IMG/VR virus record: IMGVR_UViG_3300046167_000447
Location: 1,575-65,574 of that record
DNA from: a virus
Lineage: Duplodnaviria > Caudoviricetes
Direction: 5' to 3' (one strand)
Length of the DNA: 64,000 nt
Shown here: positions 2,933 through 20,135 of the stretch, one piece after another
Numbering within the stretch: position 1 is the first letter of the stretch
Layout of the letters: every line of letters starts with the position of its first letter
Made by a program: the position numbers and the translations under genes
Notes under the pieces: generated by a model
What the model was told of the DNA's origin: nothing
The model's database searches: none
Seen by the model: the letters and a program-made list of their open reading frames with translations, nothing else

Positions 2933-2939
2933 ACTCATA

Positions 2940-6186: not shown

Positions 6187-6465
6187 CATGCTAGTAGCAA
6201 CTGCAATCATTTCATTCGTAGCTAACACAGGAGTGTTGGCTTATGTAGGTTATCAAAGCGGTAACCAAGTATCAACTTTAAAAGCAAGGAGCAATGCCCG
6301 TAAATAAAGAGATATGGTTCGCTTACCGAGGCGTACAAGATGCGGGTTACTTCAATGTGTTTGACCCAAGGGCGAGAGCGTTGGCTAACGAAGTCAACGA
6401 TATGAATATCACAAAAGAACAATGGACTTTTGTTATTACTAATTACGATAAATTAAAAGAGACCT

Positions 6466-6819: not shown

Positions 6820-6913
6820 ACCCTATAGTATGGAGGGCGGTGTGTAGCAGACCGCTCTCTGTACTTAATGATTAACCGCTACATCTTAAACAACAACTTT
6901 AATTCATATTCAA

Positions 6914-7096
6914 ATGAACAATTCAATTATTTTCAAGTTTGGCTCACTAAAATTAGTAGGAACGCAAAAGGCTGATGGTAGCACTTTCAAGGTGTTTTGG
7001 GACGGCATATACCAAGAGTTAATCACATCCAAGGAGAAAGACTTAGATGTTGCCTCGGAGCGTGTTACTGAGCAGTTAATGGGTGTTATACTTTAA
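6914..7096 (+). CDS. Hypothetical protein
   Basis: 60 aa ORF with AT-rich leader. Confidence 0.6.
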   Translation: MNNSIIFKFGSLKLVGTQKADGSTFKVFWDGIYQELITSKEKDLDVASERVTEQLMGVIL

Positions 7097-7108
7097 CACC
7101 AAAGAGAG

Positions 7109-7522
7109 ATGAGCAACACAACATCTTGGGGAGGAATCCCTTATAGCAGAGACTACTACATAGAGTTAGCAGAACTGCAAGACTTTGAGATGGTTAATCA
7201 GCTATTGGCTTATGCGATTGCTGAGTCCGAGTCTACGATAGAATACTACGTTAGTGTAGCTGACACGGAAGGTTACTTCTCGGAATCCGATGCTTGTTCG
7301 TACGGAGACCTTACAAGGGATATAGCTTACTCGGATATGGTGGATGACATCACCGAGACATTCCAAAAGGCTAACAGACTCGATTCAGTTCAGTCTGTTA
7401 ATGATTTATACAAGAGTAAATTCAAGGACATCACCTTGCTTACTCCTTACGTGTTTGAAGAACTGATGGAAGAGATATCAAGCAACGTCGGTTTAGTGGT
7501 AGACTTAGAGCCTTGGGGCTAA
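7109..7522 (+). CDS. Hypothetical acidic protein
   Basis: Starts within the TTTAACACCAAAGAGAGATG repeat. Confidence 0.7.
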   Translation: MSNTTSWGGIPYSRDYYIELAELQDFEMVNQLLAYAIAESESTIEYYVSVADTEGYFSESDACSYGDLTRDIAYSDMVDDITETFQKANRLDSVQSVNDLYKSKFKDITLLTPYVFEELMEEISSNVGLVVDLEPWG

Positions 7523-7525
7523 TAA

Positions 7526-7584
7526 TAGGGGCGGGTTCGAATCCCGCTCTACCACCTCAGTAGAATGTTCACTATCAACATTCT
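7526..7584 (+). ncRNA. T-loop minihelix ending in ACCA, plus CACTAT-loop hairpin
   Basis: GGGGCGGG-TTCGAAT-CCCGCTCT-ACCA and AGAATGTT-CACTATC-AACATTCT. Confidence 0.55.
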
Positions 7585-7670
7585 CACCCTCAGCGACCCC
7601 GACTAAAGTGGTTTTATAAATTCGGGATAGAGGGTAACAATATTTATTCACCAATTTTAACTCAGTTGTT

Positions 7671-8084
7671 ATGATTAACACTAAAGAAAAGACCTTAGAG
7701 TATTGGCTCGGAGAAAGGTTAAAGAAGAGCGGAGAGGTTTCGCAGAGCGCAAAACTAAGAAACAGACTTGATGCTTGGTTCATCAAGAAAGGATTCAAAC
7801 CAATTCACATAGCGTATAGTGAAAACTTCTCGGAGTATTACAACAACACGACTTCACAAGTAATCTCTGTGAATGAGATAGACTACTTTGATGATAGTCT
7901 GTTAAGTAGTAACTCTTGGGTTTTGGCGCACGGATTCCTTATGCCGTATAATGCTCTATACGACTTTGGCGTTATGTGGGAGATTCGTGAAAAGTCTTAC
8001 ACAGATGTAGATAACTCAACTGAACGGCAGTTGATTGACACTTTAGAATTATTAATTGAAAATGGAATAGCTTATGAACTTTGA
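7671..8084 (+). CDS. Hypothetical protein
   Basis: 137 aa ORF. Confidence 0.7.
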   Translation: MINTKEKTLEYWLGERLKKSGEVSQSAKLRNRLDAWFIKKGFKPIHIAYSENFSEYYNNTTSQVISVNEIDYFDDSLLSSNSWVLAHGFLMPYNALYDFGVMWEIREKSYTDVDNSTERQLIDTLELLIENGIAYEL

Positions 8085-8481
8085 TGACATTATGAGTGGG
8101 GGACTCACACCCAAGTCAAGAATGGGAGAAAACATAACCGATATATTCGGTGTTGACTCGGACTTCGCAATGAAGACAACGAGGGATTTAGTCAAGCTAA
8201 CAACTGACACGGAATCTACTGATGCTGACATCATTCAGTCTGCATTGGCGATGTGTGAAACCAAGGAAGAGTTGGCTGTTGTCTTGCACTTACACACTAA
8301 AACTTTGGTTAGCAAAATGGCTGACCAATTCGAGGAAGCAAGTGCGCTCTTAGAGGATACTAAGGATGTCCTTGAATCGTTGGGAGAAGATGTCTTGATG
8401 AGATACGCTGAAGGAATGATGCAGAAACTCATGGAGAGAATGGGCGGTAGTCTTGACGACTTAAACTTAGATGAAGAGTAG
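8074..8481 (+). CDS. Hypothetical acidic protein
   Basis: 135 aa ORF. Confidence 0.7.
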   Translation: MNFDDIMSGGLTPKSRMGENITDIFGVDSDFAMKTTRDLVKLTTDTESTDADIIQSALAMCETKEELAVVLHLHTKTLVSKMADQFEEASALLEDTKDVLESLGEDVLMRYAEGMMQKLMERMGGSLDDLNLDEE

Positions 8482-8495
8482 TTACTTAGTAACTC

Positions 8496-8568
8496 ACACG
8501 TGCACGTGTACGCACTATATCATATACCATTGTAGAGAGAGTAGCATATATGCTACTACTCTCTCTAC
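8496..8568. repeat. Palindromic element copy 1 (candidate origin or operator)
   Basis: ACACGTG palindrome, CTATATCATATACCAT box and 17-bp inverted repeat with 3-nt bulge; second copy at 43243-43309. Confidence 0.7.
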
Positions 8569-8589
8569 TTAACTATTAATAATCACATT

Positions 8590-8787
8590 ATGAAAGTATT
8601 TGTAATAAAATTACTAACCCCTAACAGAAGAACGGGAGGATTCATCTCCGATGTCGTTGGGGTTTTTGACATTGAGTCTGTTGCTTTTGAGGAATCCGAA
8701 AGGATTGACAACGAACAGAAAGAAGATTGGGGTGATGGAGGATTTACTACTATCGAGCCATTCGAATTAAATGAATCGACCTTATGA
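8590..8787 (+). CDS. Hypothetical protein
   Basis: 65 aa ORF. Confidence 0.65.
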   Translation: MKVFVIKLLTPNRRTGGFISDVVGVFDIESVAFEESERIDNEQKEDWGDGGFTTIEPFELNESTL

Positions 8788-9080
8788 GTAGAATGCACAA
8801 CCTAAGGGTAGATACCTACAAAGTAACAGAATGCACATCTGTTAACTTAATCTCCTATGAAGATGACCTTGGTTCTACTAAGGTTATGATGGAAGGAGAG
8901 ACATACTATTCCGTTGAGGGTAACATTGCAGTTATGTCTGTGATGGATGAACAGACCATAGAGATATGGGATGAACGTGCTGAGAAAGGCATTGAGAACT
9001 TATTGTTTACGGATTATGAATCTGTAAGTAAGTATTGGGGTGATATAAAAGTGATATACAATTTAAACGAGAGAAAATGA
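8784..9080 (+). CDS. Hypothetical protein
   Basis: Coupled ORF. Confidence 0.7.
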   Translation: MSRMHNLRVDTYKVTECTSVNLISYEDDLGSTKVMMEGETYYSVEGNIAVMSVMDEQTIEIWDERAEKGIENLLFTDYESVSKYWGDIKVIYNLNERK

Positions 9081-9445
9081 CAGAATCAAATGTTTATGGG
9101 GTCTTGATAGACCCTATTAATGGAGTGACCATCAAAGAATTCGGTGGAGAGATTGGATTAGATGAGATGTATTCAGCAATCGATTGCGAATACGTTGAGC
9201 TATCAGTCCTAACCGATGAGCTAGACCTATGGGTCGATGAGGAAGGATTCATCAACGGAGCAACACAGAGGGTTGGAGTGTTCCAAGTTCAAGATGCGGA
9301 TGGCGAGAGACTCGGTCAGCCAATGTATGCGGGTAAGGGTCTTATCCTTGCCTCCGACAACGAAGGTCGCATTGTAGGTCTAACGAAAGAACGGGCAGAG
9401 GCTATAGTCGGTAGCTTAATGTTTCAAACATCTATGTCTCTATGA
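9077..9445 (+). CDS. DUF3846-like protein
   Basis: L..MY.AIDC..VE and LWVDEEG motifs. Confidence 0.7.
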   Translation: MTESNVYGVLIDPINGVTIKEFGGEIGLDEMYSAIDCEYVELSVLTDELDLWVDEEGFINGATQRVGVFQVQDADGERLGQPMYAGKGLILASDNEGRIVGLTKERAEAIVGSLMFQTSMSL

Positions 9446-9534
9446 TAACAGAATCAACCAATGGAGAATTTATTTTTACGTTGCCTTGTTTTAGGGCAAC
9501 ATTTCATTTATATTAATTTAAACAACTTCAATTT

Positions 9535-10107
9535 ATGAGTAAACTTCAAACTGCTTTAATCAAGGTTCAATCGGAACTAAAAGCACCTAAGAACCAAAGA
9601 AACAACTTTGGGAAGTACAACTACCGCTCTGCTGAGGACATTCTCGAGGCGGTTAAACCTTTGCTATCTGCAAACGGATTGACAATGACAATCACGGACT
9701 CTGCTGAAGAGCTAGGCGGTATGGTGGTTATCACCTCTACTGCAACGATTACAGATGGTACTGACTCTGTTTCCTCATCTGCTCAAGCGGGTGTTGACCC
9801 TAACAGAAAAGGTATGGACATTGCTCAGTCATTCGGCTCATCGAGTTCTTATGCTCGTAAGTATGCAATGAACGGACTTCTTCTTATCGATGATACTAAG
9901 GATGCTGATGCTACCAATACTCACGGACAGACTGCCTCAAGCAGACCCGCAACGTCTCAAGGCGATGATGGTGATTGGTTCTCGAAAGCCATTGAATATA
10001 TAAAGAACGCTAACGACAAGAACCAAGCGTTCGAGTTAGTCAAGAACAAGTACGGAGCAACTGCAAGTGAAAAGCAGATTGGCGCACTAAAGAAGTTCGT
10101 TAAGTAA
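9535..10107 (+). CDS. erf: ERF-family single-strand annealing protein
   Basis: LKAPKNQRNNFGKYNYRSAEDILEAVKP and GSSSSYARKYA motifs. Confidence 0.92.
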   Translation: MSKLQTALIKVQSELKAPKNQRNNFGKYNYRSAEDILEAVKPLLSANGLTMTITDSAEELGGMVVITSTATITDGTDSVSSSAQAGVDPNRKGMDIAQSFGSSSSYARKYAMNGLLLIDDTKDADATNTHGQTASSRPATSQGDDGDWFSKAIEYIKNANDKNQAFELVKNKYGATASEKQIGALKKFVK

Positions 10108-10910
10108 TGCAGTTCGCACAAGCAATACAAGAGAAAACGGGGAAGGGGTATGTATCCGCTTCCTCGTTGAAGTATGCTATCACGGGTAGCAAAGACTTCG
10201 ATATGATGGCTTGGGAACTCAATATGAAAGGAGAACTCAAGAAGACTTCTAAGGCGTTCACATTCGGTGGATTCTTTGATAGTCTGTTGTTAACTCCCAA
10301 TGAAACTTGGGACAGATACGTTGTCTTAAAGGATGATGAGATTTGTGAAGAGATTGGCGGTAAGAACCCTCGTGCTACTAAGCGTTACAAAGAATGGAAA
10401 GCAGAGCAGATGGGTGACAAGGAGTTAATCACACAAGTCGAGTACAATGTAGCTAAGGTTATGTGCCGTAGGTTACGCAACTCCGAGGTCGTTGACCACG
10501 ACACGGGAGAGATTGTAAAGCTAGACAGATTCATTCAAGGCAATGCTCAACAAGAGTTTAACACTTGGATTGGAGATGTGCCCGTACGAGGCTTCTTAGA
10601 TGTCTTGGGCGATGGATTCATTACCGATGTCAAGACTTCATCACGTAGTCTGTCTCAGTTCAAGTGGGATGTTCGTGACTACAACTACGACCTACAAGCG
10701 TGGATGTACTGCGAGGTCTACGGAACTAAAGACTTCTATTGGTTAGTACAGACTAAAGACAAACCTTATACTTGTGGTCTGTTCAAAGCTACTGATGAGA
10801 CTCTTGCTAACGGAGAGCGCAAGTTCTACGATGCGGTTGGAAACATCAGTAATTGGTTAGTGGAAGAACCTAAAGACACATCAACATTTGCCGTACAAGG
10901 CTCAATTTAA
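10107..10910 (+). CDS. PD-(D/E)XK exonuclease (RecE/DUF3799-like)
   Basis: RGFLD, DVKT and Y.YDLQAWMY motifs; next to ERF. Confidence 0.82.
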   Translation: MQFAQAIQEKTGKGYVSASSLKYAITGSKDFDMMAWELNMKGELKKTSKAFTFGGFFDSLLLTPNETWDRYVVLKDDEICEEIGGKNPRATKRYKEWKAEQMGDKELITQVEYNVAKVMCRRLRNSEVVDHDTGEIVKLDRFIQGNAQQEFNTWIGDVPVRGFLDVLGDGFITDVKTSSRSLSQFKWDVRDYNYDLQAWMYCEVYGTKDFYWLVQTKDKPYTCGLFKATDETLANGERKFYDAVGNISNWLVEEPKDTSTFAVQGSI

Positions 10911-10922
10911 AATCAAGTAAGT

Positions 10923-11330
10923 ATGAATATGTTTAGACTTAGGTTAGTGCTGAGGACACTTAAAAGAACCCTCAACAAAGTTATCTATGGTAGACACAAG
11001 GTCAACTATAATAACTCTACGCTCCTTTTCTTGGAGTCGGCTATGGAGAATATGTATGGAGTAGACTTAAACGTCCCGCAACACGGACACAAAGAAGTGC
11101 AACTCAAAAGATTCTTTATTAACTTCTTAGTCGCAGAAACAGATTGGAGCGTAATGGAAATCAGCAGAAGATTTAACTCTGCGGGTATCATAGCCAATGG
11201 ATTATCGAGAAGAACTATGCAGTATTACGTCAACTCTCACGCAGACGAACTGAAAGAAATTTCTCCTAATTCAGTAACTTACGCAAGAGCATACAGAACA
11301 TTCACAAAAACTTTAATTTCAATTCTTTAA
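10923..11330 (+). CDS. Hypothetical protein, possibly DNA-binding
   Basis: 135 aa ORF. Confidence 0.6.
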   Translation: MNMFRLRLVLRTLKRTLNKVIYGRHKVNYNNSTLLFLESAMENMYGVDLNVPQHGHKEVQLKRFFINFLVAETDWSVMEISRRFNSAGIIANGLSRRTMQYYVNSHADELKEISPNSVTYARAYRTFTKTLISIL

Positions 11331-11333
11331 ATT

Positions 11334-11654
11334 ATGAGCAATCAAAATCAAAACTATCAAAACGACCCATTAGTAGGATTCACTAACGCACCACGTGTTG
11401 AGTTACGAATCTCATTCACAGAGGCAGAACTCAATGACCTCAAGCAGTATCTAACGGGCAAGGACACCAAGCGTGTGTACTTAACAATCAAGTCGGGTGA
11501 GAAGAAAGACAAGAGCGGTACATACAACATCTGCTCAGTCTACGACCCGAACAAAGGTCAAGGCACTCAAGCATCTCAGCAGTTTGCACAGAGCCAAGGC
11601 GCACCCGCACCGAGCCAAGCAAACAACACGAATTCGGATGACTTACCATTCTAA
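11334..11654 (+). CDS. Single-stranded DNA-binding protein-like
   Basis: Low-complexity linker and DDLPF C-terminus; recombination context. Confidence 0.7.
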   Translation: MSNQNQNYQNDPLVGFTNAPRVELRISFTEAELNDLKQYLTGKDTKRVYLTIKSGEKKDKSGTYNICSVYDPNKGQGTQASQQFAQSQGAPAPSQANNTNSDDLPF

Positions 11655-11677
11655 GTCGCAGACTTAATAACTACATC

Positions 11678-11706
11678 AGCCTCGCTCCATCGGAGCGGGG
11701 CTTTTT
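11678..11706 (+). terminator. Rho-independent terminator
   Basis: AGCCTCGCTCC/GGAGCGGGGCT stem followed by T run. Confidence 0.8.
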
Positions 11707-11709
11707 AAT

Positions 11710-11748
11710 GCAGAGGATGGTCAATGTGGTTCGACTCCACGCTCTTGC
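11710..11748 (+). ncRNA. Mini tRNA-like element without ACCAC hairpin
   Basis: GCAGAG/CTCTTGC, GATGGTCAA linker, TGTGG-TTCGACT-CCACG. Confidence 0.55.
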
Positions 11749-11994
11749 CCTAATTTTAAATTCAATCACAAATGAAAAAGCTATTATTACTTAGTCTGTT
11801 TGTTGTTTTACCAAGCGAATTAAACACAACAGAAGAGGTCTACCTTGAATCAAAAAGAAACGAACTTGACTCTACTTCAGTCATTAAAACAAACCACTAA
11901 AATATTTAACTATGACAGATTCAATAAGTGCAATATTTCTACTCATAGTCTTGGCTTATTGCTTAGACAAACTAACTTCGCTAATAGAATAACT

Positions 11995-12333
11995 ATGAAA
12001 GCACTAACCAAAGTATTAGCTATGCACCTTTACTCGGAAGGTATGGGTGAGGTTAGCGAGATAACAGACACGACCTTTTGGATTGAAGGTCAACGCAAGA
12101 ACAAGGTTGAGGTTTACGGAACTCACTTAGGCAGAGAAATTAATCTGTCAAATTGTTGTTTATGTGCGGATTTTTTATTACTATCTCTTTTCGACAAAAC
12201 GGGTGACAACGTAATCCTAATGAAGACAAGCGAAGTAAAAGACAGACTAAAAGACAATCAAATATCCTTAGTGGATATGGCTGAGATTATAGTTTATCGA
12301 TGGCAAGTAGAATTTTTACCAACAAAAGAATAA
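11995..12333 (+). CDS. Hypothetical protein
   Basis: Part of ORF 11845-12333; likely start MKALTK at 11995. Confidence 0.55.
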   Translation: MKALTKVLAMHLYSEGMGEVSEITDTTFWIEGQRKNKVEVYGTHLGREINLSNCCLCADFLLLSLFDKTGDNVILMKTSEVKDRLKDNQISLVDMAEIIVYRWQVEFLPTKE

Positions 12334-12344
12334 AACCAAAGAGA

Positions 12345-12470
12345 ATGAATGAGCAAGAGAAAGTCACAAAGATTCTATTTGCCTTGATGGTATTTACAAT
12401 TGTGCGTCTAGCCTTTATTGTTATTGGATTAATGTATGTCTATGCACACCCTACAATAAGTTTAAGATAA
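12345..12470 (+). CDS. Small membrane peptide, paralog A
   Basis: MNEQEKVTKILFALMVFTI...YVYAHPTISLR. Confidence 0.6.
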   Translation: MNEQEKVTKILFALMVFTIVRLAFIVIGLMYVYAHPTISLR

Positions 12471-12622
12471 AATTATGAATAGAATACCAAGTTATCCAAG
12501 TGCAACAAAAGCAGTTTTTATAGGAATAATTATAGCATTGATTTTATACTTTGTGATGCTGAATCTAATTTCCTACAACCCCCAATAAACACCCTACAAT
12601 AAGTTTAAGATAAAATTATGGA

Positions 12623-12832
12623 ATGGATAATATAGAAATTAAAAAAACAAGTATTGGAAAAGTAGGATTCTTTTTTAATAGCGATGAAGAAAAAACACAT
12701 AGAATTGGTAGACTTGTATCAGTTACGCAAAACGGGAATTGTCAAGATGAAGATGGTTGCTATTATGACAATTTTACACCAATGAAAAGAGCTGATTTGT
12801 TAGAATGTATTGATTTGGAATTTTTCTCTTAG
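12623..12832 (+). CDS. Hypothetical cassette protein
   Basis: AT-rich ORF. Confidence 0.6.
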   Translation: MDNIEIKKTSIGKVGFFFNSDEEKTHRIGRLVSVTQNGNCQDEDGCYYDNFTPMKRADLLECIDLEFFS

Positions 12833-12888
12833 TTGTACATAAGACGAGTGTATGGCACGTTGCAACCACTAACTTAAATTAAAAAGAT

Positions 12889-13107
12889 ATGAATTGGATT
12901 AAGAGATTACTTGGATTGAAACCTAAAGAGCAATGTGCTATACACAATGTTAGCAAACGTTTTTGTGTTAAGTATGTTGTTGATGGGAATTTAGCATTAG
13001 AATACAGTTGGTTTTGTGATGCTACAAATGAAGCTATGGCAAGATACGATTTTTGGGATAATCATAATGGATTATATCACGATATAATTTCTGTAAATGT
13101 TTGCTAA
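12889..13107 (+). CDS. Hypothetical cassette protein with attC-like boundaries
   Basis: AT-rich ORF with inverted-repeat signatures. Confidence 0.6.
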   Translation: MNWIKRLLGLKPKEQCAIHNVSKRFCVKYVVDGNLALEYSWFCDATNEAMARYDFWDNHNGLYHDIISVNVC

Positions 13108-13272
13108 CCCCCAATAAACACCATAAACTAATTTAAAACCAAAGAGAGATGAAAATGACAAACGAAGAGATTTACGAGAGAGTAATGGGACACAAGCCAA
13201 ATAAAGATTTTGGCATTAAGGGTTCATTTAGTTGGAATGATATAAACGCTTTGATGAATGAGGCAAAGAGAG

Positions 13273-13395
13273 ATGAGTGAGAGAGAAAAAGCCACAAAGA
13301 TTCTATTTGCCTTGATGGTATTTACAATCTGCACTTTAGCACTAATCGTATTAGCATTGATGTACGTATACGCTCACCCTACAATTAATTTATAA
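13273..13395 (+). CDS. Small membrane peptide, paralog B
   Basis: MSEREKATKILFALMVFTI...YVYAHPTINL. Confidence 0.6.
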   Translation: MSEREKATKILFALMVFTICTLALIVLALMYVYAHPTINL

Positions 13396-13414
13396 CCCTT
13401 TAAAACCAAAGAAA

Positions 13415-13780
13415 ATGGACAGAGAGTTAGCAAATAACATACTCCGAAACGGAGGTAGCGGACAAGCGGGAATGATTAGTTTCACCCGATGTAATCAAGA
13501 AACCATAGACAATATAGAGGCTATGGGCAACGAGCAACTTGAATTAGAGATGAGGTCTGCTTATTGGATGACGTATGTATACGGGCAGTTTTCAATAGCA
13601 GACTTGCAGTATGTTGAATTATTAGCCTTAGAGTTAGACTCAAGAGGTTGGACAGAGACAGATTGGGATAAGTTTAACGAATGGGCAGATGATGAAAAGA
13701 TTAAATTCGATGAGAGCCAAGAAGACTCAATGGGTTCTTTTGAAGTTGATAGTGAATCCGAAGAACCTTTATCTCTTTAG
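13415..13780 (+). CDS. Hypothetical protein
   Basis: 121 aa ORF. Confidence 0.7.
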   Translation: MDRELANNILRNGGSGQAGMISFTRCNQETIDNIEAMGNEQLELEMRSAYWMTYVYGQFSIADLQYVELLALELDSRGWTETDWDKFNEWADDEKIKFDESQEDSMGSFEVDSESEEPLSL

Positions 13781-13783
13781 ACC

Positions 13784-14053
13784 ATGGGCAGAAGGAAGAT
13801 GATTTACGACTCTATAGTTAGGGTTAAGTTCAAGAAGACAGCTAAAGCAAAAGGTTGGACTGAGAGAGAATTAAATACGGTGAGTGTATGTGAAACTCCA
13901 ATAGAATTCAACTCAACTCCACGAGCCTTAGAGGGACTCAAGCAGATGGTATTCGATAAGAAGTCTGTCGGTTTTAGAACCAAGGGAAACTTTGTAGTTG
14001 TAGAGGTAAAGGAAAAGAAACCAATTAGTGAAAGTTTTTATTACTATGATTAA
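13784..14053 (+). CDS. Hypothetical protein
   Basis: 89 aa ORF. Confidence 0.7.
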   Translation: MGRRKMIYDSIVRVKFKKTAKAKGWTERELNTVSVCETPIEFNSTPRALEGLKQMVFDKKSVGFRTKGNFVVVEVKEKKPISESFYYYD

Positions 14054-14717
14054 ATTAACAGACAAGATAATATCCGAGTTCTTTCCGAGGGACAATCGGT
14101 TTCTCCACTTTGTAGCCAAGAAGCACGGACAATTCTTCATAAACGAAGATGATGTTGAACGTGCGTCTTTCTACGCTTTGGAATACATACTCAAGAAGCG
14201 AGGCGAGGAGTTTGAGAATATGTCTCATGTAAACTCGTTGGCTGAATGGGCTTTTCGTGGTGCTATTTCTAGGATGATATCCTACAACCAAGCACAGAAG
14301 AGAGATGTCGAGGTTTACTCCGAGTCGGACTTCTATGCAGACCATGATGATGCAAGAAGCGTTATGGACAATCTGTTCGAGATGCAACCCGAATTGGATA
14401 CGCTACTGACAGATGCAAAGCAATGCTTGGAGGACAAGGATTACGACATCATTAAGATGATAACCCTTGGGTACAATATGGTCGAGATTGGAGAGAAGTA
14501 CAATCAAAGTGCAGAATCCATAAGACAAAGAAAAATCAAAGTTATTAAGCAATTAAGAGTTTATTATGAAATTGACAAGAGAACTGATAGAGTCAATGGC
14601 GAGAGTCTACGAAAAAGAATACAACGTAAATCCTCTAAAAAAGAGAAGGTACAAAGAAGTCGTGCTGAGTCGGCAATCGATTATCTCTATTCTAAAGAAA
14701 AGGTTTTCGCTGAGTGA
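14046..14717 (+). CDS. Sigma-70-like factor (region 4 HTH)
   Basis: L..KDYDIIKM..LGYNMVEIGEKYNQSAESIRQRK resembles sigma region 4; start at ATG 14046. Confidence 0.6.
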   Translation: MIKLTDKIISEFFPRDNRFLHFVAKKHGQFFINEDDVERASFYALEYILKKRGEEFENMSHVNSLAEWAFRGAISRMISYNQAQKRDVEVYSESDFYADHDDARSVMDNLFEMQPELDTLLTDAKQCLEDKDYDIIKMITLGYNMVEIGEKYNQSAESIRQRKIKVIKQLRVYYEIDKRTDRVNGESLRKRIQRKSSKKEKVQRSRAESAIDYLYSKEKVFAE

Positions 14718-14988
14718 GTCGCACTTATCCAATCTGTTTGAGTGCGATAGAGCAACGATATATCATTCTGTGTACACAGTAGAAGAACAAATCAAGCTAA
14801 GAAGCACAGACTACGTTCAGTCTATTGAGAGATGGATTCCAATAATCGAAGAGTTCGAGGAACAGATGAAGAGCGTATCGGTAAGTGTAAATGCAAACAC
14901 AACCGAAGAAATCATCTTGGGATTACTATCAAAACATACGGCAGAAGAACGTGAGGAACTCTTATCTAACATAACAAATCAGTTATAA
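14566..14988 (+). CDS. DnaA C-terminal-like HTH protein
   Basis: RRYKEVVLSRQ...LSNLFECDRATIYHSV resembles the DnaA domain IV signature. Confidence 0.6.
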   Translation: MKLTRELIESMARVYEKEYNVNPLKKRRYKEVVLSRQSIISILKKRFSLSESHLSNLFECDRATIYHSVYTVEEQIKLRSTDYVQSIERWIPIIEEFEEQMKSVSVSVNANTTEEIILGLLSKHTAEEREELLSNITNQL

Positions 14989-14989
14989 C

Positions 14990-15454
14990 ATGACAAACGA
15001 AGAAAGGAAAGCCACTCCTATATTTCAAGGGGTGTTGCGTTATTTCCCAAACGCTTTAAGGGAAGTGTCTCGATGCAGTCTTGCATCAAACAAACAACAC
15101 AATGGAGACGCTCCCGTTTATTGGGATATGGAAAAATCTAAAGACGAACTTGGTTCTTTGACAAGACACCTTGTAGATTTAGCATCGGGCGAAGAGTACG
15201 ATGAAGATGGTACACTCAATCTAGCCAAGATAGCTTGGAGGGCGTTAGGCGCACTAGAAAGACATCTGCAAGGAGATGAATCATTCGAAGGAGAAAACTT
15301 TTATAAAGAACTAAAACAAACGACAGATGGCGAAGAAAACAGAACCGAGGGTAACGATGTTCGAGAGCGTGTTCAAGACGGACAAGCCTTACCACATAAC
15401 ACTTACTACCGCACTACAACGAATAGCAGACGGGTCGAGCAAGGAAACGATTGA
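14990..15454 (+). CDS. dATP/dGTP diphosphohydrolase-domain protein (DUF5664-like)
   Basis: GVLRYFPNAL.EV, QHN, SL.RHL and LAKIAWRAL motifs. Confidence 0.7.
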   Translation: MTNEERKATPIFQGVLRYFPNALREVSRCSLASNKQHNGDAPVYWDMEKSKDELGSLTRHLVDLASGEEYDEDGTLNLAKIAWRALGALERHLQGDESFEGENFYKELKQTTDGEENRTEGNDVRERVQDGQALPHNTYYRTTTNSRRVEQGND

Positions 15455-17162
15455 GAAGGTTCGTGAAGGCGATAAGAAAGCAAAGACAGATTTGCCCGTT
15501 GTTTTATTTTCGGGAGAGTTTACTGCTCGTGAAGATGACCAAATCATATCTCATAGCGGATTAGTAGTCTTAGACTTCGACCATATCGATGTCGAGGCTT
15601 ACAAGAACATTCTATGTACTGACGACCACATACTTGCGTGTTGGGTTTCACCAAGTGGTGATGGACTCAAGGCGTTGGTTCGCATCAGCAACCCCGAAAG
15701 ACATCGTGACCACTTCCGTGCGTTGCAACAATACTTTGACAAGCAGTACAACTTAGAACTCGATTCTTCGGGGGCTAATGAGTCTCGTGCTTGTTTCGAG
15801 TCTTGGGATGAGCACATCTGCATCAAGGAAGATGCACAGACCTTTGGCGGGATGCTTTCGGATGAGGGTGCTACCAAGAATGCTAACGCTACAATCCTAG
15901 AAGGAGAGTTTACAGATTATCAAAAACTCAACATCGCTTGTCGTATGATTCGTACGGCACAAGACGGAGAGAAACACTCTGTTCTTTTAAAGGCATCTGT
16001 ACTTGTCGGTGGTTACATCGGAGCGGGTCGCATAGAAGAGCAAGAAGCTATCCGTGTACTTGAGCGTGAGATTGCACGGCACGATGTTGACTCAATGGAG
16101 ACGGCTCGTAACACTATTCGTGACGGAGTCGAACAAGGTAAGCAGTTGCCTATCCGTGAGGTTATGGATGTTGAGAATGAGGTTCAGCGTGAGCAACTCA
16201 TTGAATCTACAGATATGTCATTCATCTCATCCGATGATGAAGACTTGGCGTGGATTAACGCACTTGCAGAAGGTAAACTTCAGTTAGGTTTAGATACGGG
16301 TAATGAAGCCCTTGACGAACACTTCCGATACAAGAAGGATTTCTTTATCTTTAATGGACACTCCAACGTAGGTAAGACTACAATGGCTCTGTACTTAATG
16401 GTAAACTCATCTATGCGACACGGGTGGAAGTGGCTGATATACTCAGCAGAAAACAAGACCGCATCAATCAAATCTAAACTGATGCAGTTTGCGGGTAATC
16501 GCAGGCTTGAGTCTATGTCTTATCACGAACGCAAGTTCTTGTACGAGTGGGTTAACGAACACTTCGTTGTCATTAGCAACAAGCAAGTGTACACATACTA
16601 CGACTTGATTATATTCGCTGAGAAGATGATGAAGAACGGAGGAATTGATGCGATGTTCATTGACCCTTATAACTCATTGAAGATTGACTTGAGTGGTCGT
16701 AACCAAATCGGTGTACACCAATACCACTACGAGGCAGCGAGTGAATTCCTAACCTTTGCTAACAAGCACGACATTGCGCTATGGCTCAACACTCACGCAG
16801 TTACTGAAGCACAGAGAAGAAAAGGTCAAGACGGATTACCCGTAGCGCCATTCGCTGAAGACACAGAAGGTGGTGGTCTTTTCGTGAATCGTGCAGATTC
16901 ATTCGCCACATTTCACAGAAAAATTCAGCACCCCGAGCCACATTGGAGAAGAACGATGGAGTTTCACATGAGAAAGGTTCGTGAGGTTGAGACGGGCGGT
17001 AGACCTACTCCATTTTTAGAGCCTCTGTACTTCGAGTTGAATGGCACGATGACGGGATTCTCAATCAACGGGCAATATTTATTTCAAGATTTGTTCACTA
17101 CAAAGAATAGTAGCCAACAACAAGAAATAAAACCGCCACAAGACTTGTCTAACGTGTTTTAA
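15327..17162 (+). CDS. Primase-helicase (BT4734/VirE-N AEP domain plus DnaB-like helicase)
   Basis: HSGLVVLDFDH and SPSGDGLK motifs; Walker A GHSNVGKT; IDPYN. Confidence 0.85.
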   Translation: MAKKTEPRVTMFESVFKTDKPYHITLTTALQRIADGSSKETIEKVREGDKKAKTDLPVVLFSGEFTAREDDQIISHSGLVVLDFDHIDVEAYKNILCTDDHILACWVSPSGDGLKALVRISNPERHRDHFRALQQYFDKQYNLELDSSGANESRACFESWDEHICIKEDAQTFGGMLSDEGATKNANATILEGEFTDYQKLNIACRMIRTAQDGEKHSVLLKASVLVGGYIGAGRIEEQEAIRVLEREIARHDVDSMETARNTIRDGVEQGKQLPIREVMDVENEVQREQLIESTDMSFISSDDEDLAWINALAEGKLQLGLDTGNEALDEHFRYKKDFFIFNGHSNVGKTTMALYLMVNSSMRHGWKWLIYSAENKTASIKSKLMQFAGNRRLESMSYHERKFLYEWVNEHFVVISNKQVYTYYDLIIFAEKMMKNGGIDAMFIDPYNSLKIDLSGRNQIGVHQYHYEAASEFLTFANKHDIALWLNTHAVTEAQRRKGQDGLPVAPFAEDTEGGGLFVNRADSFATFHRKIQHPEPHWRRTMEFHMRKVREVETGGRPTPFLEPLYFELNGTMTGFSINGQYLFQDLFTTKNSSQQQEIKPPQDLSNVF

Positions 17163-17180
17163 TTGTTTATCTTTATAGTT

Positions 17181-17639
17181 ATGAGAAGTTATAACAGAAA
17201 ACGCAAGACAGGTGCAGTCAATAGCAAGAAGAAAGTTATAGACGGGATTACGTTTGCATCTAGCCTAGAGGCTTATACTTACGCTAAACTAAAGGAGGTT
17301 GGCATTGATTTTAAATATGAGGGCGAATCTTTCGAGGTTCTGCCCTCGTTTAAGTTTAAGGGGAAATACTTATCCTCTTCGCCAAAAAAGAAAGAGTTAG
17401 CAGACAAAAGCAGCAAGGTGGTACGAGCAATAACGTATACGCCCGACTTCGTTGGAGAAGATTGGGTAATAGAATGCAAGGGATTCATTCCAAGTAATCA
17501 CTCGTTTCCACTTAGATGGAAGCTGTTCTTAAAGATTGCTGACAAGAGAGGCTTTGATGTCTATATGCCTAAGAATCAAAAACAAGTAGACGAAGTTATT
17601 AAATCAATTCAAGAAAAAGGATGGACATTGGGAATTTAG
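17181..17639 (+). CDS. Endonuclease (T7 endonuclease I/DUF1064-like)
   Basis: DGITFASSLE, YTPDF and IECKG motifs. Confidence 0.8.
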   Translation: MRSYNRKRKTGAVNSKKKVIDGITFASSLEAYTYAKLKEVGIDFKYEGESFEVLPSFKFKGKYLSSSPKKKELADKSSKVVRAITYTPDFVGEDWVIECKGFIPSNHSFPLRWKLFLKIADKRGFDVYMPKNQKQVDEVIKSIQEKGWTLGI

Positions 17640-17815
17640 AAATGTTTCAAAGAGAAACAACAGAAAGAATCTACAAGTTGGTAGACGAGTTAACATTGCT
17701 TACGGGTAACACAGACTTAAACATGGTCGACTTCGAGATAAAGCGAATACGCAAAGCTATAGAGGTCGAGACAGAAGCAATACTTGAGTCTGTAAAAGAA
17801 TATCACGGAATTTAA
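17621..17815 (+). CDS. Hypothetical protein
   Basis: 64 aa ORF. Confidence 0.6.
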   Translation: MDIGNLEMFQRETTERIYKLVDELTLLTGNTDLNMVDFEIKRIRKAIEVETEAILESVKEYHGI

Positions 17816-17826
17816 AAACAAACAAT

Positions 17827-18273
17827 ATGGCTAAAAGATTTGAAAGTCAAGAAGACCTTGACAGAGAAAAGAAAGCTATAGACTTGTTCGTTAGAGGTGC
17901 TGAAGGATTCTTCCCTAGAAAGATGCCTCCTTTCGAGATAGACTTTGCTATAGCTAGTAGAAAAGAGGGCAACAGAAATGTAGCCTACGTTGAAATCAAA
18001 GGAGTGAAGAAGGTTGAGTCTGTTCATGATGAACACAACCCCGTTGTATCGGTAAAAAAGTTAGCATCCTTACAGAAGTATGTTAACGAGCGCAAGTGCC
18101 CTACCTATGTTGTATGGGCATATTCCGATGGAATTAAGTATGCTAACCTTATGGACTTGAAGGGAGTTATTCTTTGGAGCGGTCAGTTAATTAAAAGAGA
18201 AGGTTCTGCCAATGACCACGAACTAATGTTCATCAACACAGACACTAACTTTAAAATCAAAACATTTAATTAA
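17827..18273 (+). CDS. PD-(D/E)XK nuclease-like protein
   Basis: IDF...YVEIKG motif. Confidence 0.6.
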   Translation: MAKRFESQEDLDREKKAIDLFVRGAEGFFPRKMPPFEIDFAIASRKEGNRNVAYVEIKGVKKVESVHDEHNPVVSVKKLASLQKYVNERKCPTYVVWAYSDGIKYANLMDLKGVILWSGQLIKREGSANDHELMFINTDTNFKIKTFN

Positions 18274-18278
18274 ATCAA

Positions 18279-19010
18279 ATGAAAAATTCAGAAATCAGAC
18301 CACGTTTAAGTGGAGCTAAGAAAGCAAATCACGAGTACTTCAACAACGGAGAAAACAGAGTATTGGTTATCGGTGATATCCATGCGCCATTCGACCTTGA
18401 TGGTTATCTAGACCATTGTAAGGAGACTTACGAGCGATACAATTGTAACAAGGTTGTATTCATTGGAGACGTAATCGACAATCACTATTCCTCGTACCAC
18501 GAGACTGATGCCAACGGCATGGGCGGTGCAGACGAACTTGAGTTTGCGATTGACAGACTGAAGCCTTACTACGACGCTTTTCCCGAAGCAGTAGTTCTGT
18601 GGGGTAACCACGATAGAATTATTATGCGTAAAGCACAGACTAGCGGTCTACCAAGCCAATGGCTCAAGGACATCAATCAAGTGTTAGGCACACCTAAGTG
18701 GGAGTTTGTGATGGACTACTACCTAGATGGTGTACGATACACACATGGAGATGGTTCGGGCAAAGCCAAAACGGCTTGTGTTCGTGATATGCAGTCTACG
18801 GTAACGGGACACTACCATACAGATTTCTATGTTAACTACCACGTTGGTGCTAACACCCGTGTGTTTGGCATGGCGGTAGGTTGCGGTATAAACGACAAGT
18901 CGTACGCTATGTCTTACGCTAAAGGCGGTAAGAAGAGTGCTATCGGATGTGGAGTTGTCCTTGGTGGTAGTACAGCTATAGCTGTCCCCATGAGACTAGG
19001 AGGTAAATAA
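18279..19010 (+). CDS. Calcineurin-like metallophosphoesterase
   Basis: GDIH, GDVID, GNHD, THG and GHYH motifs. Confidence 0.9.
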   Translation: MKNSEIRPRLSGAKKANHEYFNNGENRVLVIGDIHAPFDLDGYLDHCKETYERYNCNKVVFIGDVIDNHYSSYHETDANGMGGADELEFAIDRLKPYYDAFPEAVVLWGNHDRIIMRKAQTSGLPSQWLKDINQVLGTPKWEFVMDYYLDGVRYTHGDGSGKAKTACVRDMQSTVTGHYHTDFYVNYHVGANTRVFGMAVGCGINDKSYAMSYAKGGKKSAIGCGVVLGGSTAIAVPMRLGGK

Positions 19011-19027
19011 TTTAAAACCAAAGAGAG

Positions 19028-19261
19028 ATGAGTTGGAACCACAGAATATTAGCACACAAAGACGGAGACGAAATGTATTTCCAAATACACGAAGTTTACT
19101 ATGATGAGGATGGTAAACCTATAAGCTATACTACCGATGGCGCAAATGTAGGGTCTGAAAGTTTAGATGGTATTAAACGGGTATTAGATAAAATGAAAGA
19201 GTGTGTTAATAAGCCTATTCTTTCAGCTGATGATTTCCCGAATGAGTACAATGGTGCATAA
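19028..19261 (+). CDS. Conserved small phage protein (WNHR...IHEVYY type)
   Basis: ORF within cassette. Confidence 0.75.
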   Translation: MSWNHRILAHKDGDEMYFQIHEVYYDEDGKPISYTTDGANVGSESLDGIKRVLDKMKECVNKPILSADDFPNEYNGA

Positions 19262-19282
19262 AAAATTTAAAACCAAAGAGAG

Positions 19283-19390
19283 ATGAAGATAATGAAGCTA
19301 ATTAGGTTTTTAGGACTGCTTATACTGATAATGCTTTTACCTGTGTTAATTATATTATCTCCGATAGCTACTTTATATGAACGCAGTTAA
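19283..19390 (+). CDS. Small membrane peptide
   Basis: 35 aa hydrophobic ORF between repeats. Confidence 0.5.
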   Translation: MKIMKLIRFLGLLILIMLLPVLIILSPIATLYERS

Positions 19391-19418
19391 TACACCCTAA
19401 ATTTAAAACCAAAGAGAG

Positions 19419-19679
19419 ATGAAAATGGAAAGTGAACAAACAAATTGGAATGACCTTACATTAAAAGAAAGACTTGCTTTTGTAAAGCATAATGAGCAAT
19501 TGGATTTATACAGTGTTAGTGGTAGTTGTTTTGCTATTAACGCTTTTGTAAGGTGTAAGAACAACGGAATTATTAGGTACATAAGCGAACAGAATGGTAG
19601 AACATTTAAGGATGATGGAAAAATAAGTGGGTGTGAACCTTCTCCATTTTGCCACTATGAAAATTATGTGATGATATAA
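19419..19679 (+). CDS. Hypothetical cassette protein
   Basis: ORF starting in repeat. Confidence 0.65.
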   Translation: MKMESEQTNWNDLTLKERLAFVKHNEQLDLYSVSGSCFAINAFVRCKNNGIIRYISEQNGRTFKDDGKISGCEPSPFCHYENYVMI

Positions 19680-19734
19680 TTAATAACGTGTTACATTTTA
19701 ATACATTTTTAACACGATTTAACACCAAAGAGAG

Positions 19735-19935
19735 ATGAGTGAGAAACAAACACAACCAACAGAACAACCAACAGAACAACAAAACGATAATTTTCTTGTA
19801 TGGGATAAATTGTTTTCAATATTAGCTTGGAAATTTATACCAACCAAAAGTGGTGATATGATGATTAACGCTGAGGATGTTTACAATGAATTGAAAGATG
19901 AATTTAATTTAACCTTTAACACCAAAGAGAGATGA
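19735..19935 (+). CDS. Hypothetical cassette protein
   Basis: Ends FNTKER, which is encoded by the repeat. Confidence 0.65.
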   Translation: MSEKQTQPTEQPTEQQNDNFLVWDKLFSILAWKFIPTKSGDMMINAEDVYNELKDEFNLTFNTKER

Positions 19936-20135
19936 GTAAATGTAATTGCGTTTGCGGAAACTGCAAACAAGACCCAAACAAAACGGGAGTCTACGGAGTA
20001 GACACAACAGATGCCTTGCAATCGTGGCAGACAGAAATCATAAACAAAGAGATTGAAGACCGATATAGGGATAACCAAGACCCATTCGGAGACCATTTTA
20101 GTATTAACCCTAATTCAGCAAAAGAAAATGAGTAA
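19932..20135 (+). CDS. Hypothetical protein
   Basis: ORF starting in repeat. Confidence 0.6.
   Translation: MSKCNCVCGNCKQDPNKTGVYGVDTTDALQSWQTEIINKEIEDRYRDNQDPFGDHFSINPNSAKENE

Follow-up and report, generated by a model that had tools for sequence, protein, structure and literature searches.

The window analysed here, a stretch of 64,000 nucleotides from a 65.6-kb marine phage of Flavobacteriia type, carries a short repeat that heads small genes of unassigned function in the early/middle arm of the phage and ends in their start codon. With a confidence somewhat better than even, we regard this repeat, called the leader below, as a portable stop-start translation leader that also provides a crossover point for cassette exchange; we infer both the translational role and the enzymes involved.

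The leader is about 20-31 nt long and has the consensus AAACC-TTTAA(C/A)ACCAAAGAGA(G/A)-ATG-A. A search of the window found seven exact copies of TTTAAMACCAAAGAGAGATG (at 7092, 13132, 19011, 19266, 19402, 19718 and 19915), all on the + strand, where 0.02 would be expected by chance; this number was reached in none of 100 shuffles, and an exact search of both strands found no antisense copy in the window. These are the seven positions listed in an earlier note made from the sequence alone, and the three variants that it reported at 12331, 13265 and 13399 are also real, mapping to 12331-12347, 13262-13275 and 13399-13417. The 14-base core of the leader, with up to two mismatches allowed, had 11 matches in the window vs. 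0.71 expected. Two further statements of the note were borne out: the 27 nt of 13131-13157 recur unchanged at 19401-19427, and the arrays are AT-rich, with a GC content of 0.351 at 12001-14000 and 0.383 at 18001-20000 vs. about 0.40-0.42 elsewhere in the window. The 3' end of each leader copy is the ATG of an ORF.

All features described in the following are on the + strand. The copy at 7092-7111 (exact, C form) stops ORF 6914-7096 with the TAA at 7094-7096 and starts with its ATG a gene of 137 aa (7109-7522), to which no family was assigned. The variant at 12331-12347 (TAAAACCAAAGAGA-ATG) lacks one base; other strains have the full leader at this place, with an extra G behind 12344. It is followed by the gene of a small hydrophobic protein of 41 aa (12345-12470, corrected coordinates); in the unrelated fragment G001, and in the other array of the relative L140, homologues likewise follow a leader. 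A second kind of start-linked leader (CACCCTACAATAAGTTTAAGATAAAATTATG) lies at 12447-12477; it belongs to a 31-nt direct repeat whose two copies, this one and the one at 12590-12620, flank the gene 12475-12588. An extended intergenic leader (TAAC..CAATAAACACCATAAACTAA + TTTAAAACCAAAGAGAGATG, 13104-13151), which has TAA in all three frames and occurs four times in G001 as well, heads a 43-aa gene (13149-13280). A partial leader (GGCAAAGAGAGATG, 13262-13275) lies within the end of the preceding ORF, at the start of a 40-aa paralogue of the 41-aa protein (13273-13395, corrected coordinates), and a variant one base shorter (..AAAGAAAATG, 13399-13417) precedes a 121-aa gene (13415-13780) that is conserved in L140. 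The exact copy at 19011-19030 (A form) lies directly 3' of the stop of a metallophosphoesterase gene, and homology with five relatives stops there. It is followed by exact copies at 19266-19285 and 19402-19421 (A form) and at 19718-19737 and 19915-19934 (C form), the last with the consensus AACC just before it. The cassette genes behind these copies encode, in the same order, proteins of 77 aa (19028-19261), 35 aa (hydrophobic, 19283-19390), 86 aa (19419-19679), 66 aa (19735-19935) and 67 aa (Cys-rich, 19932-20135). The 66-aa ORF ends, as the note had read it, in FNTKER and a stop; the next leader encodes both, and the TGA of this ORF overlaps the ATG that follows.

A scan for the 5' half of the leader only (AACCTTTAACACCAAAG), which is unbiased as to the ATG, yielded 134 distinct instances. 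ATG followed exactly 4 nt after this half in 119 of the 134 and within 0-6 nt in 124, in agreement with the earlier claim that the repeat supplies the start codon. In the alignments of the instances codon periodicity begins after this ATG, no conservation was seen upstream of -5, and in 99% of 155 instances an A follows the ATG. In two frames the leader also offers the preceding gene a stop codon, and such stops are often used: of the 98 upstream ORFs that have 30 codons or more, 60 end inside the leader, 18 of them with the TAA of TTTAA and 42 with the TGA that overlaps the ATG. The 228 distinct leader-headed proteins fall in 117 clusters, by which measure the leader precedes at least 117 unrelated families of predicted small proteins; FNTKER-like tails were found in 51 of the proteins, from 23 clusters.

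On the mRNA the most likely role of the leader is that of a translation (re)initiation region which works without a Shine-Dalgarno sequence. In Bacteroidia, according to the part of Baez et al. 2019 (PMC6847099) used here, start regions are enriched in A at -14 to -11, with a positive contribution of A at -3, -6, -12 and -13. The leader resembles these start regions in its A-rich stretch at -14 to -11 (A at -14, -13 and -11), in the A at -6 (it has A at -8 to -6), in the AUG, in low secondary structure (five of the seven window copies fold no better than shuffles) and in having no Shine-Dalgarno sequence, whereas its position -3 is G, where A is favoured. The window's own genes likewise show an A peak at -13 to -11. 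We found no significant complementarity of the leader to a Flavobacteriales 16S rRNA. The start regions of the hosts are, however, degenerate (PMC6847099, same part), whereas the leader is a fixed word of 20-26 bases, which occurs almost only in viruses. A loose translation signal alone does not account for 20-26 bases kept identical. TTAA at -22 to -9 is present in 21 of the 32 middle-class genes without exact leader vs. 7 of the 38 late genes, which hints at a class-specific signal beyond what translation alone explains.

Comparison of genomes revealed cassettes of 95-100% identity which run exactly from leader to leader between differing neighbours. In G010 and G009, whose flanks are 81-92% identical, two cassettes stand in the orders A-B and B-A; identity is 100% over 305 nt for cassette B and 97% over 199 nt for cassette A, and the matches end at leaders. 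Cassette B is 100% identical also in G012, whose flanks are just 73-77% identical to those of G010 and G009, and a 99.5% identical copy of cassette A was found in a third context. G012 and G011 have in common a 43-aa cassette, 94.9% identical from leader to leader, with no similarity of the flanks around it. Window positions 19011-19287 are 98.6% identical to L094, and the neighbours differ on either side. L140 is without the 1,070-bp block 12335-13404, which is edged by the leader variants at 12331 and 13399. A near-identical strain from run X2 is without two window cassettes (13149-13280 and 13273-13395): a contig of this run, with no mismatch over 1,272 nt, joins 13111 to 13394. This indel, which shares its right edge, the variant at 13399, with that of L140, has TAAC in place of 13112-13393 and is not a clean leader-to-leader crossover. 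When the loci were compared all against all with blastn, 40 of the 106 right match ends lay 20-29 nt downstream of the leader start, and 13 of the 94 left match ends 1-10 nt upstream of it. Breaks were seen at leader-bearing gene starts in 82 of 130 partner comparisons vs. 2,606 of 7,703 (34%) at other starts, a control that mixes conserved core genes with small genes. Because breaks are about twofold commoner at leaders yet common elsewhere, exchange is favoured at leaders without being restricted to them. At the level of sequence, then, cassettes are exchanged with their ends at the leader. The earlier reading of variable cassettes, delimited by a repeat which supplies ATG and stop, agrees with these gains, losses and reorderings; its expectation that breakpoints lie at the repeat holds for the cassette ends, but the repeat is not the only place where genomes break.

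The search across viromes that the note had proposed found the exact 20-mer in more than 124 virome stretches, and there were six matches in 185,579 bacterial and archaeal species genomes. The unrelated fragment G001 has 20 copies, and the 117-kb G011 and the 297-kb G012, in neither of which a homologue of the window's TerL (terminase large subunit) was detectable, have four and five, confined to one island of less than 1 kb in each. The two closest complete relatives, G002 and G003 (TerL 74% identical), contain no copy, and the leader is absent from all five cultured relatives. By these matches the spread of the leader is viral and patchy, and common to unrelated phages.

It is conceivable, and we give it perhaps one chance in a few, that the leader is an expression signal only, serving translation or coupling and not promoting exchange; cassette boundaries would then coincide with leaders because viable recombinants must break between genes. 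The breaks at other gene starts fit this explanation (at least one at 432 of 1,149 boundaries, besides the partner comparisons given above), as do the ends of the X2 indel, which lie 21 nt and 5 nt upstream of two leaders and not inside them, and other short junction repeats of this region which bound indels (joints 12481-13102 and 12593-13106, with weak sides). It does not explain why match ends cluster within a few bases of the leader edges, nor why leaders are the sole sequence shared beside cassettes of 95-99.5% identity in G011/G012, L094/window and L132/G009. The A-B and B-A orders need exchange at three leaders, and the leader is identical even where it is non-coding, between unrelated genes. 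That the shuffling is an artefact, assemblers having joined co-occurring phages at the shared repeat, seems very improbable to us. The comparison genomes are all metagenome contigs, in which a shared repeat could cause chimeric joins, and k=31 contigs of public runs do break at leaders (ends 19040 and 19908) and have loose ends at 12331, 13131/2, 19266 and 19910/1. The leader (20-31 nt) is, however, shorter than the reads and than the final k of common assemblers, and cassettes common to different samples are 88-99.5% identical, not only 100%, and thus represent separate, diverged copies. Moreover, an internal cassette in the 297-kb contig would need two switches back to the same genome, and the X2 contig reads through the deletion junction without a mismatch, the shorter of its two sides matching over at least 255 bases.

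Another alternative, which we consider unlikely, is a compact promoter: a phage RNA polymerase or sigma factor, or an alternative sigma factor of the host, would recognise the leader and give mRNAs with a very short 5' leader or none. The exact and uninterrupted conservation of the element over about 26 bases is reminiscent of the promoters of single-subunit polymerases, the window's phage encodes a sigma-like protein, and a TTTAA-like sequence at -17 to -13 is common to the middle genes. Host-type TAnnTTTG boxes, which many late genes have upstream, number only two in the + strand of 5400-21600, and the repeats of T4-type phages discussed below, which include a promoter, offer a precedent. 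A promoter does not, however, require an ATG within the element at a fixed distance or upstream ORFs that end inside it, and the leader has no TTTG or TAnnTTTG element. G002 and G003 share the sigma-like and replication genes yet have no leader, the unrelated 117-kb and 297-kb genomes have it in one tiny island only, and in G001 another promoter-like motif precedes the genes outside the leader array, with no such motif within the array of 16 genes. No greater probability can be given to an operator for a trans-acting factor that co-regulates all cassettes (an endoribonuclease, or a protein that represses or activates translation), comparable to RegA or RegB of T4. That about 26 bases around the start codon are conserved exactly would suit sequence-specific recognition, and the leader is limited to one temporal arm and one strand. 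Against this, no protein is detectably common to the carriers: of 93 window ORFs one, a cassette gene, matches G001, although this argument is weak, G001 being a 22% fragment. Searches of the window ORFs revealed neither a RegA-like nor any other RNA-binding family, and neither antisense copies in the window nor significant complementarity to 16S rRNA were found. It is possible that the trans-acting partner is a host factor.

The favoured interpretation, a leader for both translation and exchange, can be put together as follows. In marine phages with Flavobacteriia-type hosts, the leader would stand before small accessory genes whose arrays lie on one strand and are probably polycistronic. Its A residues, lack of structure and fixed distance to the ATG would allow (re)initiation without a Shine-Dalgarno sequence, and it would also terminate the upstream gene, by the TAA in TTTAA or by the TGA overlapping the ATG. 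Since the same 20-30 bases flank unrelated genes in unrelated phages, they would be the sole shared homology and the site of exchange, at which cassettes could be swapped, deleted, inserted and reordered. This would probably occur by homologous recombination in mixed infection, and the window's phage encodes a candidate recombinase, an Erf-family single-strand annealing protein (9535-10107, + strand), and its likely partner, a PDDEXK exonuclease (10107-10910, + strand); annealing by these two enzymes, as proposed in the note, may bring the exchanges about. A search of the window ORFs with Pfam and PHROGs revealed no site-specific recombinase, be it an integrase, a transposase or another type, and the 1,574 bases outside the window have only ORFs of up to 88 aa, in line with the exchange free of integrase that the note had suggested. 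Exchangeability may help to keep the leader identical.

Integrons are one-directional arrays of small, promoterless, exchangeable genes, mostly of unassigned function, bounded by a recurring site. The leader arrays are similar in their single direction, their small, promoterless, exchangeable genes, most of them of unassigned function, and their recurring boundary site; they differ in having no integrase and no attC-like imperfect inverted repeat, and the leader stands at the 5' end, gives translation signals and consists of 20-30 bases of plain homology. The promoter-early stem-loops (PeSLs) of T4-type phages are, in the parts of Arbiol et al. 2010 (PMC2839356) and Comeau et al. 2014 (PMC4122927) drawn upon here, likewise short regulatory repeats with a conserved sequence, found in hyperplastic regions between small ORFs that are not essential; indels and replacements in close relatives end at them, and recombination between the repeats was proposed to cause the shuffling. 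PeSLs consist of a sigma-70-type promoter and a terminator stem-loop, neither of which the leader has, whereas the leader is fused to the ATG and provides stops. Across unrelated lineages (60 kb to 297 kb) the leader is nearly unchanged, whereas PeSLs were described within the T4-like group. The Start-Associated Sequences (SAS) of Cluster K mycobacteriophages, as presented in the part of Pope et al. 2011 (PMC3203893) considered here, are asymmetric short repeats in one orientation, a few bases upstream of the starts of non-structural genes of many different families. They are practically missing from host genomes, sometimes contain the upstream stop, and have a putative translational function, all as in the leader. 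SAS are 13 bp long, have the Shine-Dalgarno core AGGAG and occur in one phage cluster only, whereas the leader, with Bacteroidia-type hosts, has no Shine-Dalgarno sequence, includes the ATG and spans unrelated phages; it is tied to cassette exchange, a claim not made for SAS in that part of the paper. The leader is a variation on known types, the PeSLs of T4 and the SAS of mycobacteriophages. What goes beyond the earlier reading of the sequence is that this leader is common to unrelated phages and missing in the closest complete relatives.

The leader TTTAAMACCAAAGAGAGATG is present in the window in seven exact copies, all on the + strand, where 0.02 would be expected by chance, and in three degraded variants at 12331, 13262 and 13399; together they make up two arrays. 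An ORF of 35-137 aa starts at the ATG of every window copy. None of these leader-headed ORFs matched a Pfam family, and the only one matching a PHROG (19028-19261) hit a group of unknown function. An earlier note on this DNA had stated that the repeat can encode FNTKER followed by a stop, that two of its sites are identical over 27 nt and that the ORFs of its arrays are often AT-rich; ORF translation, sequence comparison and GC composition (the arrays being AT-richer than the rest of the window), respectively, bore this out.

Alignment of 155 distinct leader instances among the matches listed yielded the consensus AAACC-TTTAA(C/A)ACCAAAGAGAG-ATG-A, with codon periodicity downstream of the ATG and nothing conserved further upstream than the consensus (beyond -5). 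The start codon is an intrinsic part of the leader, because an unbiased scan using only the 5' half, in which no ATG was presupposed, still found an ATG at a fixed distance of exactly 4 nt in 119 of 134 distinct instances among the matches listed. In the same matches AGAAATGA (68) was commoner after the 5' half than AGAGATGA (37). The 155 aligned instances contained no conserved inverted repeat, five of the seven window copies folded no better than shuffled sequences, and no hairpin common to the window copies was found.

Stop codons are also built into the leader. When the upstream ORF had at least 30 codons, its stop was the TGA overlapping the ATG in 42 of 98 instances, giving the upstream protein a tail ending in ..TFNTKER, and the TAA inside TTTAA in 18 of the 98 (both among the matches listed). 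The base directly following the ATG was A in 99% of the 155 aligned instances among the matches listed, which fits a built-in TGA. We considered whether the leader is conserved as a protein C-terminus and rejected this reading: protein coding does not explain the conservation, because FNTKER-like tails end proteins of 23 unrelated clusters (among the matches listed) and six of the seven window copies are non-coding or stop-only. There is also an extended intergenic form, in which ...AATAAACACCATAAACTAA precedes the leader and TAA occurs in all three frames; it was found at 13104-13151 of the window and four times in G001, an unrelated phage fragment.

The virus record (65,574 bp, with the window at bases 1575-65574) is complete by CheckV. 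Early and middle functions, namely an AAA ATPase, Erf, a PDDEXK exonuclease, a sigma-like protein, a primase-helicase, a resolvase-like protein and a metallophosphoesterase, occupy the + strand as far as about 21,600, and the structural genes are on the - strand. The window TerL is 35-44% identical to TerLs of Flavobacterium, Cellulophaga and Tenacibaculum phages, crAss-like phages being more distant. Upstream of many late genes (21614-64000, - strand) lies TAnnTTTG (e.g. TATATTTGCAA), which is the -7 box in Bacteroidota promoters, and no Shine-Dalgarno sequence was found before any window gene. The TerL kinship, the TAnnTTTG boxes and the genes devoid of Shine-Dalgarno sequences point to a host of the Flavobacteriia type. 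In gene 34158-33394 the TAnnTTTG box ends 5 nt before the ATG, a distance that suggests a leaderless mRNA. Two ORFs on the - strand, of 2,126 aa (25410-31790) and 1,255 aa (21614-25381), had no Pfam or PHROG match; in a phage with a terminase distantly akin to those of crAss-like phages, they may be a polymerase or proteins carried in the virion and ejected from it. No GenBank phage matched window 6000-21000 by megablast. Within the primase-helicase gene, contigs assembled from three public sequencing runs (X3, X4 and X5) depart from the window at 16371, and those of X4 and X5 at 16406, with the same foreign sequence each time, as would be expected of a variable insert or of a mosaic joint at 16371-16406.

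According to Baez et al. 2019 (PMC6847099), the start regions of Flavobacterium johnsoniae are rich in A between -14 and -11, and initiation is favoured by A at -3, -6, -12 and -13 and helped by low structure. The leader has A at -14, -13, -11 and -8 to -6, A or C at -12, and G at -3, thus apart from the G at -3 it has the features of a Bacteroidia-type initiation region: A-rich, weakly structured and free of a Shine-Dalgarno sequence. An A peak at -13 to -11 is seen in early, middle and late genes of the window alike. Pairing of the leader with Flavobacteriales 16S rRNA was rejected, the best duplex of the 26-nt leader (-16.0 kcal/mol) being no better than those of shuffles (-14.7 +/- 2.3; 74 of 300 as good) and the longest exact complement measuring 7 nt. 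Because its A positions and low structure fit Bacteroidia starts, and there is no significant 16S rRNA complementarity, the leader would appear to act as the host's kind of start signal, one without a Shine-Dalgarno sequence. Starts of middle-class genes that have no exact leader (5450-21600, + strand) tend to show T at -17 to -15 followed by A at -13 to -11, and TTAA lies within -22 to -9 in 21 of 32 such genes, versus 7 of 38 late and 1 of 10 early genes. This TTAA bias looks like a class-specific upstream signal; that the TTTAA of middle genes is merely an upstream TAA stop at fixed spacing was ruled out by the scattered stop-to-start spacings.

The leader could also be thought of as a promoter or a phage-specific operator, but it is probably neither. 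It contains no TTTG or TAnnTTTG element, and the + strand between 5400 and 21600 has only two TAnnTTTG boxes, neither of them at a leader. Of the complete genomes, G002 and G003 are the closest relatives: their TerL is 74% identical to that of the window, and they share 52 and 43 of the 93 window ORFs, among them the genes for replication and for the sigma-like protein, yet no leader copy was found in them at up to two mismatches, G002 having one indel variant. G001, on the other hand, a 63.6-kb fragment of a much larger phage in which one of the 93 window ORFs finds a match (a cassette gene, that is, a small gene headed by a leader), carries 20 copies on one strand: in a run of 16 consecutive genes 14 have the exact leader, one a near variant and one no leader. 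No other promoter-like motif lies inside this run, and other G001 genes carry a different one. Two further genomes with no detectable homologue of the window TerL, G011 (complete, 117 kb) and G012 (99% complete, 297 kb), have four and five copies, in each case in a single island of less than 1 kb. Being dispensable within a lineage and limited to one small island in large genomes, the leader is not the general regulatory signal of such a phage; it travels with the small genes. Pfam and PHROG scans of the window ORFs found no cognate RNA-binding repressor or nuclease of the kind that a RegA/RegB-type system has. The comparison with G001 detected no protein common to the carrier phages, which is a weak argument because G001 is a fragment.

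Several other putative signals were seen in these genomes. On the reverse strand of G001 (L204-L207) a TATTAGTAnTATAATTAAAAG-like motif, probably the phage's own promoter, recurs before genes outside the leader arrays, and a tRNA-like cluster lies at about 8,000-12,500. At the left end of the window (585-4520) the motif CTAACCGAsCC(n)ACCACGGsTCACAAA occurs in six copies (597, 1023, 1374, 1872, 3028 and 4499), about 15-20 nt ahead of the ATGs of the leftmost, early genes. Its 5-bp stem shows compensatory changes (GAGCC/GGCTC, GACCC/GGGTC, GAGTC/GACTC) and three copies are kept in G002; the motif could be an RNA element or serve as an early promoter, but it does not resemble a terminator, as no T-run follows it. 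The sigma-like protein (14028-14717) gave weak matches (PHROG 1740 at 4.9e-10; Pfam Sigma70_r4 under the cut-off), and relatives devoid of the leader retain it (34-37% identity).

The earlier note had suggested searching for the repeat across viromes, and this search showed that it is widespread and viral: the exact 20-mer was found in at least 124 stretches of IMG/VR contigs and in only six stretches from 185,579 species genomes of bacteria and archaea. These six, which lie on small or odd MAG and SAG contigs and on two Flavobacteriales MAG contigs, also led us to reject the leader as an exact copy of a host start region. At least 228 distinct leader-headed proteins of 25 aa or more fell in at least 117 clusters, nearly all without a known family among the matches listed. 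A leader also heads a 184-aa HNH_3/NUMOD4 homing endonuclease (L033:2452-3003, record G008), whose family has three members among the matches listed. The largest leader-headed family (41-42 members among the matches listed, about 75 aa, MKTPMQELIE...LEKEKE...YYNETFNTKER) frequently forms tandem paralogues whose C-terminus is the next leader (L108:97-536, L012:1340-1764, L033 and others), and the leader may have originated in it. Five cultured relatives (Flavobacterium phage elemoF, Cellulophaga phages phi46:3, phi19:3 and phi38:1, and Tenacibaculum phage Gundel_1) had no leader at up to three mismatches, only two chance-like matches lacking an ATG. Blastn of the 33-nt stretch 19908-19940, around the 19915 leader, gave no match to GenBank phages, where the low-complexity filter may hide matches. 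The 14-base core was in no paper (supplements aside), and literature searches for motifs of Cellulophaga phages and for cassette repeats of phages yielded no description of the sequence or the element; the middle promoters described in the available text of the phi14:2 preprint differ from it. The leader tags a large pool of mobile small phage genes, common to different phage families whose hosts do not use Shine-Dalgarno sequences.

The movement of these genes can be followed in pairs of genomes. The related genomes G010 and G009, with flanks 81-92% identical, have the cassettes in the order A-B and B-A, respectively, the latter followed by an extra cassette D; cassette B is 100% identical over 305 nt and cassette A 97% over 199 nt, and the matches begin 18-24 nt before one ATG and stop 3-5 nt past the next. 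Cassette B is found again in G012, 100% identical over 296-300 nt while the flanks are only 73-77% identical to those of G010 and G009, which indicates a recent transfer. A third context for cassette A (99.5%) is a Flavobacteriales MAG contig without flank similarity. G012 and G011 have in common a 43-aa cassette, 94.9% identical over 157 nt from leader to leader, and nothing else in the fetched flanks. In the window itself, the stretch 19011-19287, made up of a leader, a 77-aa gene and the next leader, has 98.6% identity to the fetched locus L094, where the genes on both sides are different. Window 12335-13404, which comprises seven small genes and is bounded in the window by two leader variants, is missing from L140, the relative closest at the DNA level (79-85% identity); the two genes flanking the block abut there. 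Homologues of one window gene, 12345-12470, are found in the other array of L140 and behind a leader in G001. Thus, as the earlier note had anticipated, breakpoints of gene gain and loss in related genomes do lie at the leader.

It must be noted that not all breaks are of this kind. A contig of run X2 has no mismatch to the window over 1,272 nt, yet it joins 13111 to 13394 with TAAC between, and therefore lacks the extended leader and two small genes; this indel is not a clean leader-to-leader event. When the fetched loci were compared all against all by blastn, 40 of the 106 right-hand match ends fell 20-29 nt after a leader start and 13 of the 94 left-hand ends 1-10 nt before one, and 11 of the 1,150 internal matches, representing about 8 distinct pairs, ran exactly from leader to leader. 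At leader-bearing starts 82 of 130 partner comparisons showed a break, versus 2,606 of 7,703 at the other predicted starts, an approximately 2-fold difference from a crude control that takes in core genes and some false ORFs. The proposal of cassette exchange bounded by the repeat therefore holds insofar as gene content differs among relatives and the differences end at the leader, but breaks are not exclusive to it. The comparison genomes are all assemblies, so chimeric joins at a shared repeat could in principle mimic shuffling; this is very improbable, as the cassettes that recur in different samples have diverged from one another and the X2 junction is firmly anchored. Contig joints with a side of less than 30 (e.g. 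19742-19911, 12344-19911) were read as the repeat matching two places and not as evidence, and loose contig ends at leader edges count as weak support only, because any leader-bearing phage would give them. Two other repeats lie in the same region: a second start-linked leader, a 31-nt direct repeat (12447-12477 and 12590-12620) flanking a 37-aa gene (12475-12588), and the 17-nt repeat AACCCCCAATAAACACC (12576-12593 and 13106-13121), which coincides with a weakly supported deletion joint in X4. The supposition that exchange is integrase-free agrees with the window ORFs, among which no integrase or transposase was found: no recombinase family turned up in 24 large ORFs (PHROGs) or 77 window ORFs (Pfam, 13 + 64), and the genome outside the window holds only ORFs of at most 88 aa. 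Erf and the exonuclease (9535-10910) may plausibly have a part in the exchange.

It is instructive to compare the leader with known systems. In integrons the IntI tyrosine recombinase is encoded beside the array, and attC, an imperfect inverted repeat, lies at the 3' end of each cassette; no IntI-type recombinase was found in the window and no attC-like imperfect inverted repeat at the leader. The nearest analogues are the PeSLs (promoter-early stem-loops) of T4-type phages and the SAS (Start-Associated Sequences) of Cluster K mycobacteriophages. Like the PeSLs, as partial accounts of them have it, the leader lies between small ORFs in variable regions and indels or replacements end at it; unlike them, it holds neither a promoter for the host primary sigma factor nor a terminator stem-loop. 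Circular excision products (mini-circles) between neighbouring PeSLs are described in sections of PMC2839356 and PMC4122927. With the SAS, as portrayed in part of Pope et al. 2011 (PMC3203893), the leader shares its shortness, asymmetry, linkage to starts, single orientation and location in the non-structural arm, its association with many gene families and its near-absence from bacterial and archaeal genomes. By the same partial account, the SAS has a Shine-Dalgarno core able to pair with the 3' end of 16S rRNA and is confined to one related phage group, whereas the leader lacks AGGAG, includes the ATG and stops, is tied to exchange, and occurs also in G001, G011 and G012.

A wider reading, which we put forward tentatively and consider rather unlikely, is that the leader is a universal adaptor for a plug-and-play gene pool of unrelated marine Flavobacteriia phages, an integron-like cassette economy without an integrase. 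The demands of exchange would have shaped the adaptor no less than those of expression: it would stop the upstream gene in two or three frames, restart translation at its built-in ATG and offer annealing-type recombinases 20-30 bases of identity, and continual exchange would keep it near-identical across phage families. The cassettes might, in addition, go through intermediates that are circular or single-stranded.

Small early phage genes are the seat of host take-over and anti-defence, and their movement between phages is poorly understood. The leader provides a simple sequence tag for hundreds of small early-type genes in marine viromes, and reveals small genes passing between phages that have nothing else in common. 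It is also a candidate for a compact, naturally occurring start signal in bacteria that disregard Shine-Dalgarno sequences, which would be of value for expression work in Flavobacteriia. If the leader is indeed a crossover site, it would be a second case, independent of the T4 PeSLs, in which modular phage evolution is driven by regulatory repeats, and here the repeats would act across phage families.
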